32,000 nucleotides of DNA from Candidatus Jordarchaeales archaeon (GTDB lineage: Archaea; Asgardarchaeota; Jordiarchaeia; Jordiarchaeales; Freyrarchaeaceae), in the NCBI GenBank assembly GCA_038858525.1, contig JAWCFL010000003.1, forward strand, positions 28,830 through 60,829, read 5' to 3'. Below, piece after piece: positions 2,294 through 2,450 of this stretch; the first letter of the stretch is position 1; each line of letters begins with the position of its first letter. The notes under the pieces are model-generated. The model saw only the letters and a program-made list of their open reading frames with translations. It was not told where the DNA came from and searched no databases. The position numbers and the translations under genes are program-made.

Positions 2294-2450
2294 GCTGGAC
2301 GCCATGAATCCGTGTTCGGAATGGGAACGGGTAGACCCCACATGCTATGACCGGCGCCGTAGCGCCAGTATTCGGCTTTCCCACTGGCTCCCGCACAGCA
2401 GTACTCGCCGAATCGCATGTGGGCTTGACTTTCACGTCATGGCGCCCAGC
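2294..2450 (-). repeat. inverted terminal repeat (14 bp) plus BHB/BHL processing motif flanking the permuted 5S rRNA
   Basis: GCUGGGCGCCAUGA (2450-2437) pairs with UCAUGGCGUCCAGC (2307-2294) with one G-U. Central 4-bp helix CGUG (2436-2433)/CACG (2314-2311). 3-nt bulges AAA (2432-2430) and GAU (2310-2308). Confidence 0.9.
2309..2430 (-). rRNA. rrf: 5S rRNA gene, circularly permuted (3' half 2430-2362, UACG linker 2361-2358, 5' half 2357-2309)
   Basis: Minus strand reads AGUCAAGCCCACAUGCGAUUCGGCGAGUACUGCUGUGCGGGAGCCAGUGGGAAAGCCGAAUACUGGCGC-UACG-GCGCCGGUCAUAGCAUGUGGGGUCUACCCGUUCCCAUUCCGAACACGGA. All five 5S helices form: I GCGCCGGU/ACUGGCGC, II GCAUGUGG/CCACAUGC, III CCGU/ACGG, V AUUCGGC/GCCGAAU, IV closed by a GGGA loop. 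The loop C signature CCCAUUCCGAAC and loop E GAGUA are intact. Confidence 0.95.

Follow-up and report, generated by a model that had tools for sequence, protein, structure and literature searches.

The locus analyzed here raises the question of what becomes of a 5S rRNA gene, one of the most conserved and most easily found genes of cellular life, when its two parts are written in the reverse order. In the window, that is, the entire 32,000-nt stretch of DNA that was analyzed, an Rfam search at gathering thresholds detected no 5S rRNA (the gathering score of RF00001 is 38). The earlier note on this DNA placed a complete 5S rRNA on the minus strand, with the 3' half ahead of the 5' half, and reading of positions 2200-2560 reproduced this order and its coordinates base for base. 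It is confirmed that the sole 5S rRNA gene of this Asgard (Jordarchaeia) archaeon is circularly permuted, with the 3' part first. From a gene in this order, a 5S rRNA of normal sequence could arise only by way of cutting and re-joining. How such a gene could give rise to a functional 5S rRNA, and in which form, is the question that follows.

The permutation is readily visible in homology searches once their thresholds are relaxed. At E-values up to 10, RF00001 has two abutting minus-strand matches in the window, both below threshold: 2359-2478 (25.2 bits), of which the well-aligned portion is the 5S 3' part, and 2269-2358 (22.7 bits), of which the well-aligned portion is the 5' part up to CCGAACACGG. 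The break in the molecule falls between RF00001 consensus positions 50 and 51, at the boundary of helix III and loop B, and the lack of a full-length RF00001 match of at least 38 bits in the genomic order is what would be expected from the permuted order. A profile HMM built from eight canonical 5S genes of other families in the same phylum gave a concordant result with nhmmer: in the genomic order, model positions 44-117 are matched first (33.7 bits), followed by positions 4-49 (21.6 bits), and the sequence re-joined in silico and searched as a doubled circle yields a single full-length match (positions 4-117, 70.5 bits). The check proposed at the outset thus had the anticipated outcome, with partial RF00001 matches in the genomic order and a full-length match of the re-joined circle, the latter with the nhmmer HMM. 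All 22 related loci examined display the same nhmmer pattern, with the break at HMM positions 49/50. The accompanying expectation on annotation held in part: standard 5S models do return two partial matches, but the relatives are not invariably missed, given that Sun et al. (2021) list a 5S gene for Ca. Jordarchaeum madagascariense (PMC9723677), so that a permuted gene does not in every case leave a genome scored without 5S. With HMM-based tools, the larger piece may still be called as a 5S gene. In Ca. Jordarchaeum madagascariense EB_bin_7, the sole 5S-like locus found is the permuted one (contig DXJA01000473.1, 2530 bp), and the published 5S call is probably a partial match.

Read along the minus strand, the locus starts with a TATA box by sequence, TTTATATT (2475..2482), the putative promoter, with the A-rich, BRE-like GGAAAAGC directly upstream; 24 nt separate the end of the box from the first base of the leader stem. 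In three genomes of the same genus, GGAAAAGCTTTATATT is found at the identical distance, and other lineages have TATA-like boxes. The leader strand of the outer stem, GCUGGGCGCCAUGA (2437..2450), recognized by sequence, pairing and covariation, is followed by CGUG (2433..2436), the leader strand of the central helix of a bulge-helix-bulge (BHB) motif, which would be lost after the predicted cleavage, and by the 5' bulge AAA (2430..2432), where geometry and the endonuclease rule predict a cut at 2431|2430. The 3' part of the 5S rRNA (2362..2430), delineated by the partial RF00001 match, the nhmmer match to HMM 44-117 and covariation in helices II, IV and V, begins with AGUCAAGCC and runs via loop E and helices IV and V to ACUGGCGC (2369-2362); it comprises the 3' side of loop B, the 3' strand of helix II, helices V and IV, loops E and D, and the 3' strand of helix I. 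A UACG tetraloop (2358..2361) with a C-G closing pair caps helix I and links the native 3' and 5' ends. The 5' part (2309..2357; partial RF00001 match, HMM 4-49) opens with GCGCCGGU-CAUAG and, via loop C, reaches its last segment, CCGAACACGGA, which ends at 2309; it holds the 5' strand of helix I, loop A (CAUAG), the 5' strand of helix II, helix III and loop C. Within it lies CACG (2311..2314), which contributes the 3' strand to the central BHB helix of the precursor and overlaps that of helix III in the mature fold. The 3' bulge GAU (2308..2310), with a cut predicted at 2309|2308 by the endonuclease rule, and the trailer strand of the outer stem, UCAUGGCGUCCAGC (2294..2307; sequence, pairing and covariation), complete the motif. 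The pyrimidine- and T-rich stretch CUCUUCUC ... CUUUUC (2261..2290), identified by sequence, is probably an archaeal terminator, and T-rich stretches lie 3' of the trailer stem in all relatives. From the two 5S parts, only 4 nt apart, and the single TATA box upstream, we infer that the permuted locus is one transcription unit.

Farther downstream, GGUAACUUUAAUAUUC at 2225-2245 of the minus strand is kept in all four genomes of the genus and looks like the BRE/TATA element of ORF 2217-1306 (303 aa), the gene that follows on this strand; the ORF has no Pfam match.

The first possibility to be considered is that the unusual order is an assembly artefact or a dead relic, with the true 5S gene located elsewhere or too divergent to be detected. 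The genome is a draft of 63 contigs with an estimated completeness of 92.7%, which leaves some room for such an explanation; it contains, however, no other 5S candidate above 14 bits at E-values up to 10. The four single-contig genomes of the phylum, one of which belongs to the window's own order, have no RF00001 match at threshold, and their sub-threshold matches are confined to the permuted loci. A canonical 5S gene elsewhere, which would have spoken against the original proposal, was thus found neither in the own genome nor in these four. Moreover, the permuted order recurs in more than 90 independent assemblies, closed chromosomes among them (in particular, Candidatus Freyarchaeota SRVP19, CP147778.1, from the order of the window), the promoter is conserved, and compensatory changes maintain all five helices along with the flanks. 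We consider an artefact or a relic highly improbable. Wu et al. (2022) noted that 5S genes were not predictable in their closed Heimdallarchaeum genomes (PMC8813620); the permuted order accounts for such unpredictable 5S genes in closed Asgard genomes.

The structural evidence is extensive. The 170-nt precursor folds at -84.5 kcal/mol, compared to -60.7 +/- 3.9 for shuffled sequences (z = -6.1; 0 of 200 shuffles as good), and RNAalifold, applied without guidance to 17 loci, recovers the outer leader-trailer stem together with the capped helix I and helices II, III, IV and V. Compensatory double changes occur in 33 of the 44 modelled pairs across the 17 loci, and 10 of the 11 outer-stem pairs have changed on both sides. 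Overall, 94.1% of the cells are paired. Column shuffles give 70.3%, with 0 of 500 reaching the observed level, and sliding the partners by 1-3 columns lowers the paired fraction to 33-45%. These patterns indicate that the structure of the locus is under selection. The relatives share both the permuted order and the covarying flank stems, for which the earlier note had proposed to search.

Turning to the flanks themselves, the outer stem pairs 2450-2437 with 2307-2294 (14 bp, including one G.U), and the central helix CGUG 2436-2433/CACG 2314-2311 consists of four Watson-Crick pairs out of four. In both strands, read 5' to 3', a 4-nt helix strand is followed by a 3-nt bulge (CGUG-AAA and CACG-GAU); the 14-bp stem, the 4-bp helix and the AAA and GAU bulges are all present where they had been claimed to be. 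On the inner side of the motif, there is a G.A mismatch and no contiguous pairs, in agreement with the mixed BHB/BHL character proposed for it: the G.A neighbor is seen, and an inner helix is lacking. The motif in the window is a relaxed hBH-loop (BHL) form, not the strict hBHBh' form. The established cleavage site of the archaeal splicing endonuclease is 3' of the second nucleotide in each bulge. Application of this rule produces a 122-nt piece, 2430..2309, the ends of which, by geometry and the cut rule, restore the conserved CGGAAGU with no base gained or lost, just as claimed.

A genome-by-genome search of 22 related genomes identified the BHB motif in 21 of them, in addition to the window, with 15 distinct flank sequences and outer stems of 9-16 contiguous pairs. 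For the nine motif-proximal stem pairs in the 15 flanks, 135 of 135 cells are paired, whereas 2000 trials of a partner-swapped control averaged 85 and reached at most 111; in the same flanks, 57 of the 60 cells of the central helix are paired. The motif comes in two registers. Register 1 has CGUG/CACG as its central helix, A(A/G)A and GA(A/U) as its bulges, and a predicted GGA|AGU cut; register 2 combines C(Y/A)G(R)/NC(G/U)G and the bulges AAG and AAA with a predicted GGAA|GU cut. Both restore CGGAAGU, and both occur within the window's own family (G000, register 1; G004, register 2). In other lineages, the leader strand of the central helix varies jointly with its partner strand in the 5S rRNA and with the register, and within the genus, ...CCAUGA/UCAUGG... 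is replaced by ...CCACGG/CCGUGG... through two compensatory changes.

From these features, we infer cleavage of the precursor at the bulges. A transcript of approximately 170-190 nt would start just before the leader stem, from its own TATA promoter; leader and trailer would pair in the 14-bp stem, presenting a relaxed bulge-helix-bulge without an inner helix, and the splicing endonuclease would cut at 2431|2430 and 2309|2308. The motif has a competitor: the CACG strand shares bases with ACGG, the 3' strand of helix III, the two pairings are mutually exclusive, and both RNAfold and RNAalifold favor helix III over the central helix. Because the bases of the central helix are shared with helix III, the motif must compete with the mature fold, which, like the missing inner helix, speaks against the proposal.

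In Loki-type genomes and those of family f5, the permuted 5S contains an additional hairpin, about 30 nt long, inserted between its AGUUAAG and the outer-stem half-site (L021:1426-1640(-) in G021, L026 in G031, L015 in G034 and L032 in G013), and the Loki-type loci of G021 and G031 have a second copy of the CGUG-AGA half-site. At the extra-hairpin loci, the first excised piece would be 151-153 nt long unless a second BHB-type cut removes the insert.

The enzymes that such a route calls for are encoded in the same genome: two EndA-family genes (110.7 and 80.6 bits; ~195 aa each), RtcB (601.5 bits) and archease (166 bits). The two EndA genes are located at G000 C3:81835-82089 and C43:5978-6235. 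Heteromeric EndA enzymes accept relaxed BHB/BHL motifs, and the presence of two EndA paralogs is consistent with a heteromeric endonuclease that would accept the relaxed motif. RtcB joins the fragments released by EndA, exons being joined together and introns closed into circles (PMC4731332). In the four Freyarchaeia-type genomes G007-G010, the full-length match to RtcB contains one in-frame stop (TGA or TAA; for example, G008:C175:3854-5323), for which a small mRNA intron, recoding and a problem with the frame are conceivable explanations.

In the proposed scheme, RtcB and archease would next join the two ends of the excised piece, and ligation would restore the universal ...CCGAACACGGA-AGUCAAGCC... 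at the boundary of helix III and loop B. Conceivably, the flanks could instead be trimmed or cut with no ligation at all, leaving a linear permuted 5S rRNA with a nick at that boundary. There is precedent for such an outcome in organelles, where permuted 5S rRNA stays permuted in the final product according to RNA-seq (PMC4267664). Against it stand the known activity of RtcB on EndA-released fragments, the position of the break, which lies inside a universally conserved segment and not at a helix end, and the exactness of the two registers, both of which yield CGGAAGU with no spare base, a precision that would be needless with free ends. That two registers lead to the same product favors ligation over mere trimming. 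We deem the unligated form improbable and ligation of the excised piece, taken on its own, quite probable.

The product would be a covalently closed 122-nt 5S rRNA, with helix I sealed by the C(UACG)G tetraloop, and under the reading that we favor, this ring itself, and not a re-opened linear form, would enter the 50S subunit. As a whole, the proposition that the locus is the working 5S rRNA gene of the organism, the transcript of which is cut and ligated, with the ring as the final form, has in our estimate an even chance of being correct. The persistence of the ring is the weakest step of the argument. What favors it is the tight YNCG-type cap, the tetraloop-linked 5S rRNA of E. coli and the circular SRP RNA of Thermoproteus. 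Among the approximately 31 genuine permuted cores, helix I is 7-12 bp long and its cap is always 3-4 nt; in 18 of these cores, the cap is YNCG (UUCG, UACG, UGCG or CUCG), and the cores have neither a spacer nor a conserved single-stranded site at this position, unlike permuted tRNA genes. Huang et al. [quoted passage not shown] The surveys of archaeal rRNA run against the proposal, reporting that 16S and 23S rRNAs circularise and 5S rRNAs do not (PMC12918454), and 5S circles in Sulfolobus and Halobacterium, which have canonical genes, were read as degradation products (PMC12558985).

The same cutting and ligation could also produce a ring that is only an intermediate, opened by a nuclease at or near the helix I cap to give a linear 5S rRNA, an outcome that we regard as possible and rather unlikely. 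Against it, most of the cores close a helix I of 7-12 bp with an extra-stable tetraloop and leave no conserved single-stranded spacer for a nuclease, and we know of no activity that opens a 5S ring at a loop of 3-4 nt. The ends of tRNAs are processed by RNase P and tRNase Z, and we are aware of no counterpart of this end processing for 5S rRNA, which likewise counts against an intermediate ring. The E. coli experiment shows, in addition, that a tetraloop-linked helix I functions and that opening is unnecessary (PMC7283268). In support of re-opening, permuted tRNA genes mature in this manner (Soma 2014, as summarized in PMC7758197), the general view of archaeal 16S and 23S circles is that they become re-linearised (PMC12918454), and the gene-level evidence fits an intermediate ring equally well.

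The ring as the final form of 5S rRNA, tentative as it is, can be placed among several known systems. One is the permuted SRP RNA gene that Plagens et al. (2015, PMC4731332) described in Thermoproteus tenax and T. uzoniensis; a short leader and trailer form a BHB that is cut by a heteromeric endonuclease, RtcB is the proposed ligase, and the RNA functions as a closed circle. In both cases, a non-coding RNA gene is rearranged in the DNA itself and flanked by a leader/trailer BHB; here, too, the 3' part lies upstream, the BHB would restore the sequence, and the endonuclease and RtcB are encoded. The differences are that the Thermoproteus case concerns SRP RNA in two species of one genus, whereas ours concerns 5S rRNA in most of the sampled families of a phylum, and that processing of the SRP RNA was demonstrated by RNA-seq, Northern blotting and in vitro cleavage, whereas the evidence on the permuted 5S is at the gene level.

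Permuted tRNA genes, described in Cyanidioschyzon merolae, other algae and, as the one archaeon in that summary, Thermofilum pendens (Soma 2014, in PMC7758197), are similar in having the 3' half upstream, a single transcript, BHB-type ends and a circular RNA made by the splicing machinery, the latter being proposed here for 5S; as far as that account goes, however, the tRNA circles are re-opened at a spacer by end-processing enzymes, whereas in the 5S rRNA, a loop of 3-4 nt joins the native ends. Circular 16S and 23S pre-rRNAs that depend on a BHB, as well as mature 23S rRNA in circular or permuted form, have been reported in Pyrococcus furiosus (PMC7758197) and diverse archaea (PMC12918454), and in some lineages, the circle or a permuted form sits in the ribosome (PMC7758197, PMC12918454). 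The proposed 5S pathway resembles these in that an rRNA would be excised at a leader-trailer BHB and circularised, and differs in that the 16S and 23S genes have the normal order, so that natural ends are joined, whereas the 5S gene is permuted and an internal conserved segment would be rebuilt. In the papers on 16S and 23S circles, 5S rRNA takes no part (PMC7758197, PMC12918454).

Permuted 5S rRNA as such is known from the mitochondria of stramenopiles, brown algae included (Valach et al. 2014, PMC4267664; the mtPerm-5S model). As in the Asgard locus, a hairpin replaces or closes helix I, and the termini are found at other places in the molecule. The mitochondrial version is organellar, however, has its ends at the alpha/gamma junction, involves neither a BHB nor ligation, and remains permuted in the final RNA; the position of its ends is not matched here, the break being at RF00001 consensus 50/51 and flanked by a BHB. 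Only RF00001 was listed at the locus, with clan overlaps collapsed, so that this listing is not decisive against mtPerm-5S. Engineered E. coli cp5S also has tetraloop-linked native 5S ends and yields active ribosomes (Huang et al. 2020, PMC7283268); it is, however, synthetic, with new ends in loop C or loop D fused into 23S rRNA, and is not a free ring. The impression that no permuted 5S gene had been described therefore stands for archaea, where the literature searched contained no description of a permuted or BHB-circularised 5S gene, and fails for organelles, in view of the brown-algal mitochondria (PMC4267664).

How widespread is this arrangement? A search of 151 genomes of the phylum with R1, a covariance model that covers the permuted gene and its flanks, gave strong matches of 44-180 bits in about 20 of the 27 sampled families. 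In five families (f7, f10, f12, f16 and f26), there were only weak partial matches of 26-42 bits, and those that were compared fall on canonical 5S genes. A second model (R2), built from nine loci of other Asgard lineages and free of any Jord or Frey sequence, finds the permuted gene in the window as its sole match (2285-2454(-), full length, 117.8 bits, E 4e-31). The matches listed include named permuted-order records from Jordarchaeia, Freyarchaeota, Odinarchaeia, Baldrarchaeota, Hermodarchaeota, Hodarchaeota, Heimdallarchaeota, Candidatus Asgardarchaeum abyssi and Promethearchaeota. Among the relatives from the same genus are Candidatus Jordarchaeia archaeon QC4 and Candidatus Jordarchaeum sp. 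LHC_1308. Two permuted 5S loci each are present in G034, G076, G013 and G086, and G110 has four at contig ends, which suggests repeats that break the assembly.

Beyond Asgard, a degenerate pattern scan for the permuted order across 185,579 species genomes listed matches in bacteria, Bathyarchaeia, Woesearchaeota, Methanosarcinales and others; by nhmmer, the non-Asgard matches listed are ordinary full-length 5S genes with a chance AAGTNAAR upstream, and on the strength of these listed matches, we reject a permuted 5S outside Asgard. Patterns of the re-joined junction, one of the Jordarchaeia type and one of the Hod/Heimdall type, had 0 matches each in JGI metagenome contigs; this result, obtained without a positive control, concerns canonical-order copies in DNA contigs, not RNA.

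Three GTDB classes of the phylum have a canonical 5S gene with its own TATA box and without a BHB (for example, L009:1501-1620), and these genes appear to be transcribed independently. The canonical gene was found in 41 of 41 genomes of the class that includes f7 and f26 (around G015), the largest of the three, which we take, purely as a guess, to be Thorarchaeia; in 17 of 19 genomes of the class with f12 (around G020); and in 4 of 6 genomes of the class with f16 and f10 (around G028). Among the sampled genomes, none has both forms. In a tree of RtcB from 40 genomes, those with the canonical 5S do not form one group, two or more changes of state are required by well-supported branches, and an AU test rejects a topology that holds them together (p = 8e-5); this is the tree of a single gene, on which one family is split, and not a species tree, so that repeated change or differential loss of the 5S state is only hinted at.

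The window contains a further RNA gene, tRNA-Val(CAC) at 24818-24921 of the plus strand, with an encoded CCA end. Its intron, about 29 nt long, has a non-canonical position, between the D arm and the anticodon stem. ARAGORN reported no tRNA in the window, this one included, and the Rfam match to the region covers only 24862-24918 (33.9 bits).

Taken together, these observations allow us to propose, tentatively and at somewhat less than even odds, that most Asgard archaea make a ring-shaped 5S rRNA from a permuted gene by means of the tRNA-splicing enzymes, and that the trait is old and its state has changed more than once. A permuted 5S gene that needs cutting and ligation has not been described for an archaeon, a bacterium or a nucleus in the literature searched. 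For annotation pipelines, the immediate gain is a model, the permuted covariance model, which scores 44-180 bits where RF00001 fails. If processing proceeds as proposed, the non-tRNA work of the splicing endonuclease and RtcB would extend to a core ribosomal RNA. If the broader proposal is true, the lineage that led to eukaryotes would have reverted to the canonical 5S gene, or else the ancestor would have carried both forms. A single phylum in which three classes have the canonical gene and the rest have the permuted one offers a natural comparison, and the coexistence of the two forms within it makes questions about circular rRNA in ribosomes, and about the history of 5S rRNA near the origin of eukaryotes, testable.
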